Part shown: piece after piece, positions 7,477 to 40,738 of the stretch
Layout: each line of letters begins with the position of its first letter
Position numbering within the stretch: position 1 is the stretch's first letter
Origin: Candidatus Zambryskibacteria bacterium RIFCSPHIGHO2_01_FULL_43_25
GTDB taxonomy: Bacteria > Patescibacteriota > Minisyncoccia > Phycocordibacterales > Zambryskibacteraceae
Length of the DNA stretch: 41,428 bases
Assembly (NCBI GenBank): GCA_001823695.1
Contig: MHVD01000004.1
Coordinates: 1-41,428 of the forward strand
Direction of reading: 5' to 3'
Translations under genes and position numbers: made by a program
The notes under the pieces: model-generated
Database searches by the model: none
Told to the model about the DNA's origin: nothing
Seen by the model: the letters and a program-made list of their open reading frames with translations, nothing else

Positions 7477-7628
7477 AATCTTTCGGTGTACAGCCACGGC
7501 CGCACACTAACTTGGGCATTAATAGAATTTAAAAAAAATATATTTAACCGCTTGCTCCGCTCTCTTCTCATTGTTAAATTAGGTTATACTAACAACAGCA
7601 TGGGCTAAACAATGCCAAAGTTAGTGCA

Positions 7629-7644
7629 CGGCCACGTAGCCAAG
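7629..7644 (+). repeat. partial copy (16 nt) of the 5' end of the tRNA-Cys gene
   Basis: GGCCACGTAGCCAAGT is identical to positions 1-16 of the tRNA-Cys at 8042. Confidence 0.6.
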
Positions 7645-7723
7645 TCCCGCCGATAGTCGGACAAGATTCAGGCAGTGTCCCCATTTAGATAAAGTTTTTT
7701 GTAGAATACAAATAGTTTCATAC

Positions 7724-7756
7724 GGCCACGTAGCCAAGTAGTAAGGCAGGAGTCTG
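7724..7756 (+). repeat. partial copy (33 nt) of the tRNA-Cys 5' half, ending in the anticodon loop
   Basis: GGCCACGTAGCCAAGTAGTAAGGCAGGAGTCTG is identical to tRNA-Cys positions 1-33, then diverges. Confidence 0.7.
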
Positions 7757-7797
7757 TTTCGCTACGCGAGATCTGGCGTAGCCATGACAAAACTTCA

Positions 7798-8039
7798 ATG
7801 TATTTCGTATATATCTTGCTAAGTATTAAAACAAAGATATTTATATTGGCTCAACTCAAGATGTTGAAAACAGATTAAAACTTCATAATCAAGGAAAAGT
7901 ACGTTCTACGAAAGCATACAGGCCTTGGAAATTAATCACGACAGAATCGTTTATAACCCGGGGCGAAGCGGTAAGAAAAGAAAGATTCTTGAAAAATCAT
8001 CAACAAAAAGAGATACTAGGATACAGATTTGATATTTAA
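7798..8039 (+). pseudogene. small GIY-YIG nuclease-family gene (about 80 aa), interrupted by a 1-nt frameshift
   Basis: The frame from ATG 7798 encodes MYFVYILLSIKTK. A second frame from about 7836 encodes DIYIGSTQDVENRLKLHNQGKVRSTKAYRPWKLITTESFITRGEAVRKERFLKNHQQ, stop at 8037-8039. Together these form a GIY-YIG core (YVYIL...YIGST...R...E). Seen directly; the frameshift could instead be a sequencing error. Confidence 0.6.
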
Positions 8040-8041
8040 CC

Positions 8042-8113
8042 GGCCACGTAGCCAAGTAGTAAGGCAGGAGTCTGCAAAACTCCTATACGCGGGTGCGATT
8101 CCCGCCGTGGCCT
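8042..8113 (+). tRNA. tRNA-Cys (anticodon GCA)
   Basis: Cloverleaf: acceptor GGCCACG/CGTGGCC, 3-bp D-stem, anticodon loop CTGCAAA, T-arm GCGGGTGCGATTCCCGC, discriminator T. CCA is not encoded. Confidence 0.85.
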
Positions 8114-8246
8114 CCCTAAAACATTTATGGAGTAAATGTTCGGGCGAACATTTGCGAAGCAAAGTGTTTTAGCCAGGCCTAGGAGCAAACAAGCTGCTTT
8201 GTTTGCATCGGGAATTGCAGATTTGTTAAATTTGCCGTTAGAAGCC

Positions 8247-8328
8247 GGGCCAGTGGCGGAATGGTATACGCGCAACACTTAAAATGTTGTCCGCTATGCG
8301 GATGAGGGTCCGACTCCCTCCTGGCCCA
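8247..8328 (+). tRNA. tRNA-Leu (anticodon TAA), class II with long variable arm
   Basis: Acceptor GGGCCAG/CTGGCCC, anticodon stem-loop CAACA-CTTAAAA-TGTTG, long variable arm, T-arm GAGGGTCCGACTCCCTC. Confidence 0.8.
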
Positions 8329-8358
8329 CTTAGTACAAGATTATAATTTTGGTCAACC

Positions 8359-8400
8359 AATAAACATACTAACAAACTTGAGTTTGTTAGTATGTTTATT
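8359..8400 (+). promoter_or_regulatory. 42-bp perfect palindrome (20+TG+20) overlapping the promoter of the ArsR-like gene; candidate operator or terminal inverted repeat
   Basis: AATAAACATACTAACAAACT-TG-AGTTTGTTAGTATGTTTATT; the arms are exact reverse complements. It ends 5-14 nt before the gene's ATG codons. Confidence 0.7.
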
Positions 8401-8414
8401 GTAGGATGTTAAAT

Positions 8415-8699
8415 ATGACAAAAGTTAAAACCCCAAAGCAAATGGAACGCCACCTTAAGGGTATAGCCAACCATTACAGAATTGAAATATTACTCATAAT
8501 CTCAAGAAAAAAATCTATGACTTTGGAGGAAATCGTTGATGAAATTAAAGCTAATGAAAAAACACTGGGCGCGCACACGAGAAGTCTCCACCATGCAGGG
8601 CTTATTAACAAAAAATACCAAGGAAGATTCGTAAATCACTCCCTCTCTCCATATGGCAAGAAATTTGTTAATTTCTTGAAATCATTTCAACATGGATAA
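8415..8699 (+). CDS. ArsR/SmtB-family winged-helix transcriptional regulator (small, orphan)
   Basis: ANHYRIEILLIIS...LEEIVDEI...HTRSLHHAGLI matches the ArsR HTH pattern (compare LADPTRLRILELL...SHHLKVLREAGLV). The start could also be the ATG at 8406. Confidence 0.75.
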   Translation: MTKVKTPKQMERHLKGIANHYRIEILLIISRKKSMTLEEIVDEIKANEKTLGAHTRSLHHAGLINKKYQGRFVNHSLSPYGKKFVNFLKSFQHG

Positions 8700-8738
8700 C
8701 AACATACTCACAAACTCAAGTTTGTTAGTGTGATGTAA
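8700..8738 (+). repeat. second, imperfect copy of the ArsR-flanking palindrome, in inverted orientation (centre CA)
   Basis: ACATACTCACAAACT-CA-AGTTTGTTAGTGTGATGT begins 1 nt after the stop codon. It approximates the reverse complement of the upstream copy with 3 mismatches. Confidence 0.65.
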
Positions 8739-8872
8739 TTATGTTGTAGTGGATCGTGTCTTGTCGTCACAAATAAATTTGCTGACGTAAATTTTTCGCG
8801 ACCCTGGCTCGTGGTTTTTGCCTTTACTTCGCAAAACAAAAACATTGCTGTGCCTCGGACAAAAGCACAAAA

Positions 8873-8903
8873 TCCTGCGCAAGCAGGATTATTGTGTCTT
8901 TTG
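8873..8903 (-). terminator. hairpin terminator (AATCCTGC-GCAA-GCAGGATT plus T-rich tail) downstream of tRNA-Lys; may also terminate the ArsR gene on the + strand
   Basis: Perfect 8-bp stem with a GCAA loop, followed by TTGTGTCTTTTGTCC. Confidence 0.5.
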
Positions 8904-8977
8904 TCCGCCCAGTAGGATTTGAACCTACGACCGTTCGCTTAAGAGGCGACTGCTCTACCGGCCTGAGCTATGGGCGG
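8904..8977 (-). tRNA. tRNA-Lys (anticodon CTT)
   Basis: The reverse complement folds: acceptor CCGCCCA/TGGGCGG, D-arm GCTC-AGGCCGGTA-GAGC, anticodon loop CTCTTAA, T-arm GTAGGTTCAAATCCTAC, discriminator A. There is one G.A mismatch at the base of the anticodon stem. Confidence 0.7.
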
Positions 8978-9772: not shown

Positions 9773-9857
9773 GGGTAGGTGGCGGAATTGGTATACGCGC
9801 ATGGCTTAGAACCATGTCCCGCGAGGGTTGCGAGTTCAAGTCTCGCCCTACCCACCA
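9773..9857 (+). tRNA. tRNA-Leu (anticodon TAG), class II, CCA encoded
   Basis: Acceptor GGGTAGG/CCTACCC, anticodon stem-loop CATGG-CTTAGAA-CCATG, long variable arm, T-arm GCGAGTTCAAGTCTCGC, ACCA 3' end. Confidence 0.85.
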
Positions 9858-9985
9858 AGACAGAACTTAGCGGTTGAGAACCAACCAAGGCGTAAGCGGC
9901 GCGAAGCGCCGCTCATACTGTTTCGCCTGATTTTCCAAAATTGTTAATAGAAACACAAATATAAGTTAGGATATTAAAACCGCTT

Positions 9986-10019
9986 GGTATAATAACTTAC
10001 GATCGTAAGTTATTATACC
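9986..10019 (+). repeat. 34-bp perfect palindrome GGTATAATAACTTACGA|TCGTAAGTTATTATACC (PalA family) upstream of the SPFH gene promoter
   Basis: The arms are exact reverse complements. It shares the termini GGTATWATA...TATWATACC with the palindrome at 21512. Confidence 0.7.
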
Positions 10020-10081
10020 ATTTTAAAATAGCGAAAAGTTTCAGAGAGGTTTTTAGGATTTTTATGAGTTGAGATTTTTTG

Positions 10082-10110: not shown

Positions 10111-10160
10111 AAACAACGGAAAAACGTACGTTGCGAATCACTACAACAAGGAAGGTTGGA

Positions 10161-21511: not shown

Positions 21512-21547
21512 GGTATTATAAAAACGCTATAGCGTTTTTATAATACC
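21512..21547 (+). repeat. 36-bp perfect palindrome GGTATTATAAAAACGC-TATA-GCGTTTTTATAATACC (PalA family) in the divergent intergenic region
   Basis: Exact reverse-complement arms with a TATA centre flanked by GC. The termini match the palindrome at 9986. Confidence 0.7.
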
Positions 21548-22281: not shown

Positions 22282-22323
22282 ACCATCACATTTTTTCTGC
22301 TATAGCAGAAAAAATGTGATGGT
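22282..22323 (+). repeat. 42-bp perfect hairpin/palindrome ACCATCACATTTTTTCTGC-TATA-GCAGAAAAAATGTGATGGT (PalB family)
   Basis: 19-bp exact stem with a TATA loop. The terminal 10 nt and the GC-TATA-GC centre are identical to the element at 29834. Confidence 0.75.
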
Positions 22324-29833: not shown

Positions 29834-29875
29834 ACCATCACATAAAATCCGCTATAGCGGATTTTATGTGATGGT
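29834..29875 (+). repeat. 42-bp perfect hairpin/palindrome ACCATCACATAAAATCCGC-TATA-GCGGATTTTATGTGATGGT (PalB family copy 2)
   Basis: 19-bp exact stem. Same termini and centre as 22282, with compensatory differences inside the arms. Confidence 0.75.
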
Positions 29876-40382: not shown

Positions 40383-40420
40383 AATCTATTCTATAGTTCT
40401 CAAGAACATTAGAATAGATT
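40383..40420 (+). repeat. 38-bp near-perfect palindrome overlapping the 3' end of the second ArsR-like gene (centre CA)
   Basis: AATCTATTCTA-TAGTTCT-CA-AGAACAT-TAGAATAGATT. It encodes the C-terminal residues FLRTIE and the stop codon, and shares the core TAGTTCTYRAGAAC with the palindrome at 40693. Confidence 0.6.
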
Positions 40421-40655
40421 TGCCAAGCGAAGAAAGTTTATGCCTAACAGCACTCCCATCATTACGTTTTAAAATAAGACCCGAATTTGCGAGTCGTGAT
40501 ACGTGCTGGGAAATTGTCTTAAAATTCACTTTTAAAATATCTGATATCTCAAATATTGATAATTCCGGTTTATTACTCAAAAGCTCAAGTATCTGGATCC
40601 GGCGATGGTTTGCAAAACCTTTAACTATTTTTTCTAATTCTCTAACCTTTTTCAT
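40386..40655 (-). CDS. ArsR/SmtB-family winged-helix transcriptional regulator, paralog of the gene at 8415
   Basis: VKGFANHRRIQILELLS...ISQHVSRLANSGLI is homologous to LKGIANHYRIEILLIIS...HTRSLHHAGLI of the first copy. Confidence 0.75.
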   Translation of the reverse strand: MKKVRELEKIVKGFANHRRIQILELLSNKPELSIFEISDILKVNFKTISQHVSRLANSGLILKRNDGSAVRHKLSSLGKSILMFLRTIE

Positions 40656-40692
40656 ATATCTATTTTCATATATCTATTTCATTCTAACACTA

Positions 40693-40738
40693 CACATCCC
40701 TATTCCATAGTTCTTGAGAACTATGGAATAGGGATGTG
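40693..40738 (+). promoter_or_regulatory. 46-bp perfect palindrome (22+TG+22) upstream of the second ArsR-like gene; candidate operator or terminal inverted repeat
   Basis: CACATCCCTATTCCATAGTTCT-TG-AGAACTATGGAATAGGGATGTG. It lies about 40 bp upstream of the start codon at 40655. Confidence 0.7.

Follow-up and report, generated by a model that had tools for sequence, protein, structure and literature searches.

The ArsR/SmtB autorepressors, among them SmtB, CzrA and CadC as well as the non-metal regulators HlyU, PagR and NolR, are small winged-helix proteins that act at an inverted repeat with a 2-bp centre placed over their own promoter. Their operators usually have a 12-2-12 layout, and an N-2-N inverted repeat is the usual form in the family. 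Here we describe a locus whose product has the same fold and belongs to the same Pfam family, found in contig MHVD01000004.1 of Candidatus Zambryskibacteria bacterium RIFCSPHIGHO2_01_FULL_43_25, a member of the Patescibacteria (all 41,428 nucleotides of the stretch are referred to below as the window). The locus consists of a gene for a 94-amino-acid ArsR-like protein, bracketed by two copies of a long palindrome, one before the start of the gene and the other at its stop codon. Like the known autorepressors, it combines a small winged-helix protein, here predicted to form a dimer, with a 2-bp-centred inverted repeat that appears to lie over its own promoter. It differs from them in that the protein falls below all the curated NCBIfam ArsR cut-offs and has no evident metal site, the half-sites are longer (15 to 21 nt), and no resistance or efflux gene is attached; moreover, it has a putative second operator at the stop codon, a predicted leaderless promoter, and phylum-wide conservation at the nucleotide level.

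Other described systems share parts of this arrangement. LacI (operators O1 and O2), GalR and DeoR loop the DNA between an operator at the promoter and a similar second site a few hundred base pairs downstream, which for lac O2 is at about +400 and at our locus at ~+335; however, these proteins belong to another family, and here there is no detectable helical phasing and the second site stands exactly at the gene's own stop codon. HrcA with CIRCE, and NrdR with its boxes, likewise pair one regulator with a near-invariant inverted repeat over vast evolutionary distances, the regulator's own gene included, but they control chaperones and ribonucleotide reductase, respectively, whereas we found no coherent target pathway and each paralogue has a box of its own. 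AspA (5k5q, 4rs8), the centromere-binding protein of the Sulfolobus plasmid pNOB8 and a structural neighbour of our regulator, is also a small ArsR-like protein and recognizes a palindrome adjacent to the gene that encodes it; our locus, in contrast, is chromosomal and has no adjacent parA or parB. No Rfam family, curated NCBIfam family or paper in the full-text literature was found to describe the system. An ArsR-type autorepressor would be of a known kind, and what appears to be new is the bracket architecture, the use of paralogue-specific boxes and the breadth of conservation.

The regulator gene occupies positions 8415-8699 of the plus strand, with TAA at 8697-8699 as its stop codon, and was assigned from Pfam HTH_5, its homologues and its fold. 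We place its start at the ATG at 8415 (MTKVKT...), which matches the homologues; the in-frame ATG at 8406 is less likely. The upstream palindrome, our proposed operator 1, spans 8358-8401 (no strand is assigned to it or to any other palindrome or hairpin given here) and is a perfect inverted repeat of 44 bp, in which two arms of 21 nt (8358-8378 and 8381-8401, 100% complementary) enclose a central TG. An earlier reading made without database searches (the sequence-only reading) had described a perfect palindrome of 42 bp ending just before the start codon: the perfection holds and the length is to be corrected, while the distance is 4 nt to the ATG at 8406 used in that reading and 13 nt to the ATG at 8415 that the homologues favour. 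The 32-bp core common to the relatives lies at 8364-8395, and the palindrome scores 46 bits against a weight matrix built from them. The downstream box, our proposed operator 2, lies at 8702-8733; as had been recognized, it is a second copy past the stop codon with an inverted centre (CA instead of TG), and it is 29/32 identical to the upstream core, that is, with 3 mismatches in 32. Weaker, imperfect outer arms extend it to 8699-8747, and the centres of the two boxes are 338 bp apart. A search of the 41 kb with the 32-nt pattern, allowing up to 3 mismatches, returned exactly these 2 copies, where shuffled sequences lead one to expect 0.00, and the relatives' weight matrix found no third copy above 8 bits in the window. 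The gene sits among tRNA genes, and here the earlier description holds: tRNA-Cys at 8042-8115, tRNA-Leu at 8247-8329 and again at 9773-9857, and tRNA-Lys at 8903-8977 on the minus strand, transcribed towards the downstream box. This setting between tRNA-Leu and tRNA-Lys is not conserved, as any tRNA gene was present within 3 kb in only 14/60 relatives and the Leu/Lys pair in 0/60.

The encoded protein scores 27.4 bits against Pfam PF01022 (HTH_5, ArsR family; cut-off 22, E = 3.2e-6). Its AlphaFold model, with a predicted local distance difference test (pLDDT) score of 90.8, has the topology alpha1-alpha2-alpha3-alphaR-beta-beta-alpha5, with helices at residues 10-20, 23-35, 40-47 and 51-63, a beta hairpin at 67-80 and a last helix at 82-93. 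Foldseek matched this model to CadC, PagR, HlyU and SmtB with a probability of 1.00 and template modelling (TM) scores of 0.72-0.77, with SqrR, NolR and the centromere-binding AspA as further best structural matches, and a profile of the regulator gave weak matches to HlyU, CadC and ArsR chains among solved structures (E ~1e-4). By both its HTH_5 score and its winged-helix fold, the protein is a member of the ArsR/SmtB family. It stays below the cut-offs of all the curated NCBIfam ArsR models, the metalloregulator ones included (37 vs 55 bits). When we looked for metal ligands, namely the alpha3N cysteines and the Asp, His or Glu residues of alpha5, we found no invariant Cys and no ligand cluster in the C-terminal helix, and metal sensing is thus not indicated; His 16, 23, 57 and 78 are invariant and align with ordinary positions of the scaffold and the recognition helix. 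Far from being the orphan for which it had been taken, the gene is among the most conserved small-protein genes of the Patescibacteria. Searching with the protein yielded 1,936 relatives; the best 120, from Parcubacteria-type, Levybacteria, Sungbacteria and other Patescibacteria assemblies, are 67-78% identical to it over the full length, with none closer than 78% apart from what seems to be the same organism. An alignment of 32 homologues contains 37 invariant columns. With two narrow peptide patterns only, a scan of one genome per species found the regulator encoded in 224 genomes. A profile search of 1.84 billion cluster representatives gave 399 matches at E <= 1e-3 and 140 at E <= 1e-10, and these low numbers indicate that the regulators form a compact clade apart from the mainstream ArsR proteins.

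The box accompanies the gene in these relatives. We worked with two sets of loci, 80 from genomes, which were found through the protein, and 120 from metagenomes, which were found through the box alone. Among the 123 gene-bearing loci a box is present upstream in 120 and downstream in 116, and the linkage of box and gene holds in the loci retrieved by the box-only search too. In the weight matrix, eleven positions of the consensus, ACATCCTTACAAACT-KG-AGTTTGTAAGGATGT, are at least 98% invariant. Downstream boxes are as conserved as upstream ones and in most relatives begin within -1 to +2 nt of the stop codon, the TAA itself being part of the outer arm AATAACAT. The centre-to-centre spacing of the two boxes has its mode at 335 bp (39/111 loci), a value set by the length of the gene, and most boxes are oriented with the gene (109/120 upstream, 95/116 downstream). 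Both the box and the recognition helix are nearly invariant in this family (family 1 below), and co-variation between them is therefore uninformative. One locus (L133) contains two regulator genes. In two others (L037 at 1456 and L182 at 2573) we observed a duplicate of the upstream box, the -10 hexamer and the first nine regulator codons, followed by a stop, which makes up a truncated extra copy.

What follows the upstream box in the relatives looks like a promoter of fixed geometry. In the modal class of 58 loci, the sequence 3' of the box reads TGTG-TATAAT-N6-ATG: the TATAAT, whose positions are 89-100% conserved, stands 4 nt past the box and 6 nt before the ATG, which is at offset 16 in 56/58 loci, and a Shine-Dalgarno-like motif is present in 1/58. 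A strong -10 follows 71% of the upstream boxes, compared with 9-12% of the other boxes and 4% of random positions. The centre of the relatives' box, CTTGAGA, lies 16 nt 5' of the TATAAT, at the place of a -35 element, and the box spans about -48 to -17. Since the -10 precedes the ATG by only 6 nt, the A of the ATG is the expected start of transcription and a leaderless mRNA the expected product; likewise, as the -10 lies 3' of the upstream box, this box would be promoter DNA, outside the gene's transcript. The upstream box would thus cover the -35 and the spacer of a leaderless-mRNA promoter, which is the geometry of an autorepressor operator. In the window, alignment with the relatives' CTTGAGA centre points to the hexamer TTGAGT at the centre of the palindrome (8378-8383, plus strand) as a putative -35, and a -10-like hexamer, TAGGAT (8402-8407, plus strand), is found 7 nt 5' of the ATG at 8415, at the place of the near-invariant TATAAT of the relatives. 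Because this match is weak and was not called by a consensus scan, the promoter assignment in this particular genome rests on homology.

The strongest argument for recognition of the palindrome by the protein encoded next to it comes, in our judgement, from paralogues that have palindromes of their own. The window holds one such paralogue, a gene for 89 amino acids on the minus strand (40386-40655), which we identified by tblastn and as an open reading frame; its product is 38% identical to the first regulator and 100% to a protein of Candidatus Zambryskibacteria, and scores 37.4 bits against Pfam HTH_5 (E = 2.3e-9). It has 297 homologues, and the 120 listed are 61-78% identical and belong to Zambryski-, Woyke-, Brenner- and Roizmanbacteria. 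A perfect palindrome of 46 bp (22+2+22, CACATCCCTATTCCATAGTTCT ca AGAACTATGGAATAGGGATGTG) lies 5' of this gene at 40693-40738, just upstream of a -10 hexamer, TAGAAT, at 40681-40686 on the minus strand, and folds as RNA with -36.1 kcal/mol (z = -10.6). A degenerate second copy of this palindrome (40383-40420) overlaps the paralogue's last codons and stop codon. In all, we could distinguish three paralogous subfamilies, each with a different palindrome at both ends of its own gene: ACAAACT-NN-AGTTTGT in family 1; ACATTCYNACATTCT-GC-AGAATGT.., with the core ACATTCT-GC-AGAATGT, in family 2 (KQLERHFKG..NFKTISEHTRKL), where it is present at both gene ends in L020, L073 and L199; and ..GTTCT-NN-AGAAC.. 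in family 3, which comprises the window palindrome at 40693-40738 and loci L204-L207. The recognition helices differ as well, reading NEKTIGEHTRRL in family 1, NFKTISEHTRKL in family 2 and NFKTISQHVSRL in family 3. In L204-L207, family 3 relatives from other lineages, the downstream box (~1735-1770) lies inside the codons for ..ILMFLRTLE*, the regulator's last ten, so that the operator sequence and the C-terminal helix share the same DNA; three of these four loci have a -10 hexamer 6 nt 5' of the ATG. The arrangements of families 2 and 3 indicate that the bracket of box, leaderless promoter, gene and stop-codon box is a property of the whole clade. We also observed boxes of families 1 and 2 at 55-131 bp from one another in the same spacers (L139 5645/5700, L157 1525/1656, L156 437/551).

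The earlier suggestion to search for further copies of the palindrome proved fruitful in other genomes, where copies away from the gene do exist, while none is present elsewhere in the window. The metagenome loci contain 192 boxes, of which 78 adjoin the gene, 80 are clearly away from it and 34 are too near a contig end; 73 of the 80 boxes away from the gene (91%) are intergenic. The density of further boxes is ~1 per 12 kb in the vicinity of the gene, compared with ~1 per 35 kb in other places, so one genome may hold a few to a few dozen of them. That about half of the boxes are away from the gene, and 91% of these intergenic, suggests a small regulon. Genes recurrently found 3' of boxes code for TspO/MBR (12 loci), an MnmA-like protein, a SWIM zinc-finger protein and an unknown family, but the followers are diverse, TspO is the only one that clearly recurs, and no coherent regulon or pathway was found among them. 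As a -10 follows only ~10% of the downstream and other boxes, these are mostly not promoters with the geometry of the upstream box. In two loci (L015 at 4594 and L052 at 3581) a box lies in frame inside the TspO gene and encodes ..(H/R)P(Y/N)ILENIRML.., and L037 (3294) and L182 have a fusion in which the regulator gene runs through its downstream box into the C-terminal half of TspO, an arrangement that resembles the product of a recombination between two direct boxes with loss of the N-terminal half.

Given the observed conservation, geometry and fold and the paralogue-specific boxes, we consider it probable that the gene codes for a minimal DNA-binding protein of the ArsR/SmtB fold, found throughout the Patescibacteria, with the palindrome as its cognate operator, negative autoregulation as its effect and a second site at the stop codon. 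The sequence-only reading had put forward an autoregulatory operator with a second site, and it gains support from the promoter-overlapping box in ~120 relatives as well as from the paralogues. A protein dimer, or a pair of dimers, bound to the upstream box over the -35 and spacer of the regulator's own promoter would exclude RNA polymerase and so produce negative autoregulation; in most relatives this promoter would start transcription at the A of the ATG and yield a leaderless mRNA. The copy at the stop codon, ~335 bp downstream, would bind the same protein. In other genomes the protein probably has additional intergenic boxes as targets, from a handful to a few dozen, whereas in the window it would act only on itself. 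The downstream box may be a looping partner, a roadblock or the operator of the next gene. It is most likely a second site of the same protein, serving looping-enhanced autorepression or else acting as a 3' roadblock or insulator; as a possible roadblock, it would stop polymerase at the end of the gene or shield the gene from opposing transcription.

Several observations weigh against autorepression from these two sites. The window promoter, TTGAGT-18-TAGGAT, matches the consensus at 8/12 positions, is weaker than those of the relatives and has a spacing 3 nt longer than theirs, and the consensus scan made no call. Moreover, TAGGAT contains AGGA and could be a ribosome-binding site in this genome instead, in which case transcription could begin from an earlier site such as the TATAAT at 8343-8348. 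Even the downstream boxes keep a gene-wise orientation (95:21), which a symmetric operator does not need. The flanks of the boxes have a within-copy complementarity of 3.9 vs 3.6 of 10 positions (z ~2.5-2.8 in each class), an excess that hints at some hairpin-level constraint or at a trace of the origin of the copies. Outside the modal 335 bp, the spacing of the boxes has no 10.5-bp periodicity, which leaves the constant spacing as the support for looping. Finally, a co-directional gene follows 88/106 downstream boxes at a median of 51 nt, so the box may serve the next gene in many genomes.

This last point could be taken further, with the downstream box as the operator of the following gene and unrelated to the regulator's own expression, a reading we hold to be unlikely. 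The frequency and closeness of the co-directional followers, together with the recurrence of TspO/MBR, MnmA-like and SWIM zinc-finger genes among them, are what one would predict from it, but the start of the box is fixed to the regulator's stop codon and not to the start of the next gene, and in family 3 the box even lies inside the regulator's last codons. The diversity of the followers speaks against it too, as does the finding that only 12% of the downstream boxes are followed by a -10 with the placement seen upstream. In the window itself there is no co-directional follower, the next gene being tRNA-Lys on the other strand.

A broader role, which we also regard as doubtful, would concern the whole Patescibacteria-specific ArsR-like clade (~140 clusters at 50% identity, E <= 1e-10). 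Its paralogues would each bracket their own gene with their own 32-46-bp palindrome and seed intergenic and occasional in-frame copies, and the system would punctuate or insulate transcription units, through roadblock termination and promoter occlusion, or organize these reduced genomes. If so, it would be more than an ordinary pathway regulator.

The palindromes might instead be RNA hairpins that work independently of the encoded protein, the upstream one as a 5' stem-loop controlling translation or stability and the downstream one as a terminator or 3' stabilizer. We think this improbable. It is true that both copies fold stably as RNA (-25.1 kcal/mol, z = -8.8, for the upstream copy and -14.8 kcal/mol, z = -3.0, for the downstream one), that the downstream copy is certainly transcribed, that perfect palindromes make up 25/110 of the 'other' boxes vs 15/120 of the upstream boxes, and that the orientation of the boxes with transcription and the slightly raised self-complementarity of their flanks would suit a hairpin. 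However, the position of the -10 past the box, with the ATG 6 nt after it, would put the relatives' upstream box outside the mRNA, and the two half-sites vary independently of each other: left-right complementarity is 18.18/22 within a box and 18.06/22 across the two boxes of the same locus (p = 0.45), and no compensatory change between the arms was found. Many boxes combine the two common half-site variants, CCTTAC and ACCAAC, and two A-A mismatches next to the centre (ACAAACTTGAGAATGT) are fixed in about half of the boxes, whereas CT..AG at the centre is invariant. It is the sequence itself, not pairing alone, that has been kept across the phylum. Nor is there a directional T-tract past the downstream boxes, since at least 5 T in the next 8 nt were found in 30% of cases on the forward strand vs 34% on the opposite strand. 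That compensatory change and downstream T-tracts are both lacking speaks for a protein-bound site more than for an RNA hairpin or terminator. Consistent with this, a search of the window against Rfam 15 at a permissive threshold returned only the tRNAs and chance matches to microRNA hairpins far below their gathering scores.

We also considered the downstream box of the window, whose tail reads TGTAATTA, as an intrinsic terminator, and rejected it: its stem is rich in A+T, it was not called by the terminator scan and no directional T-tract follows. The sequence-only reading had allowed for a simple operator plus terminator with a degenerate downstream copy; this copy is as conserved as the upstream one and does not look like a decayed terminator. 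Separate conventional terminators are available nearby. The terminator scan found a hairpin, AATCCTGC-GCAA-GCAGGATT, at 8871-8890, with T-rich tails on both strands, which is a candidate for a bidirectional terminator between the regulator gene and tRNA-Lys, and a second ordinary one at 8796-8814. Given the candidate at 8871-8890, the downstream box need not be a terminator.

Dispersed palindromes of a selfish kind are known from the repetitive extragenic palindromic (REP) sequences with their REP-associated tyrosine transposases (RAYT) and from the Rickettsia palindromic elements (RPE), which resemble our boxes in being intergenic, in having gene-flanking copies and in occurring now and then in frame, as in TspO here. 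Our boxes differ from them in that the gene they flank codes for a 94-amino-acid HTH_5 protein and not a transposase, in their low copy number and in the conservation of their sequence between distant lineages. It seems to us quite improbable that the boxes are REP- or RPE-like selfish repeats with the regulator as their dedicated binder or a mere frequent neighbour. Such a repeat could account for the boxes away from the gene being as numerous as those adjoining it in the box-only search (80 and 78) and largely intergenic (73/80), for further boxes at ~1 per 12-35 kb, for the clustering of two box families in the same spacers (L139, L156, L157), and for the in-frame boxes (L015, L052) and fusions (L037, L182) involving TspO, but repeats of this type are not normally nucleotide-conserved across a whole phylum. 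Copy numbers are low, with none beyond the gene in the 41-kb window, no REP-associated transposase is linked, and a host function is suggested by the constant promoter layout of the regulator gene. As for membership in the REP/RAYT class, dispersal and flanking are present, and the flanked gene codes for an HTH_5 protein instead of a Y1-transposase.

That box, gene and box form a miniature mobile element with the palindromes as its ends is very hard to believe: the mutually inverted copies of the window (centre TG vs CA), the varying gene neighbourhood and the occasional duplicates (the two genes of L133, the truncated copies of L037 and L182) would fit it, but the two boxes are mostly in direct orientation in the relatives and therefore are not the terminal inverted repeats that had been proposed, there is no target duplication at 8350-8357 vs 8748-8755 and no transposase or recombinase gene, one copy per locus is the rule and the window holds a single unit, the 65-78% identity of the protein across very distant lineages fits a vertically inherited core gene, and with only 3 matches among 2.9 million viral contigs the box is not a phage feature. 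The inverted centre of the window's downstream box is a minority state among the relatives. A miniature inverted-repeat transposable element (MITE)-like unit with cargo was likewise rejected, as terminal inverted repeats, a target-site duplication and multiple copies of the unit were not found. Single boxes may nevertheless spread or recombine, as in the TspO cases.

The window contains other repeats. An exact repeat of the first 34 nt of tRNA-Cys (8041-8074) is found at 7723-7756, and one of 18 nt at 7628-7645; the stretch that separates the partial copy from the intact tRNA contains, at 7784-8030, what appears to be a remnant of a GIY-YIG nuclease gene (..YIGSTQDVENRLKLHNQGKVRSTKAYRPWKL..), and together they may reflect the insertion of DNA next to the tRNA gene. 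Three more palindromes, perfect and 36-42 bp long, at 22282-22323, 29834-29875 and 21512-21547, have the common centre GCTATAGC and constitute another family, two of whose three members also share the ends ACCATCACAT...ATGTGATGGT. A further perfect palindrome of 36 bp, TGGTATAATAACTTACGATCGTAAGTTATTATACCA, at 9985-10020, has an extended -10 (TGGTATAAT) on both strands, in convergent orientation; it adjoins the tRNA-Leu at 9773-9857 and precedes a gene that starts at 10131.

The control of transcription is almost undescribed in the Patescibacteria, also called Candidate Phyla Radiation (CPR), few members of which have been cultivated. Here a regulator and a nucleotide-conserved DNA site co-occur in hundreds of lineages, and the loci provide a clear model of a CPR promoter, in which 6 nt separate the -10 hexamer from the ATG and a Shine-Dalgarno motif is missing. 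The system therefore bears on the form of CPR promoters, on leaderless expression and on the effect of an operator placed exactly at a stop codon. The paralogues with their specific boxes, for their part, could serve as naturally orthogonal pairs of protein and operator. Should the boxes that lie apart from the gene be functional, they would be among the first predicted regulons of the phylum.

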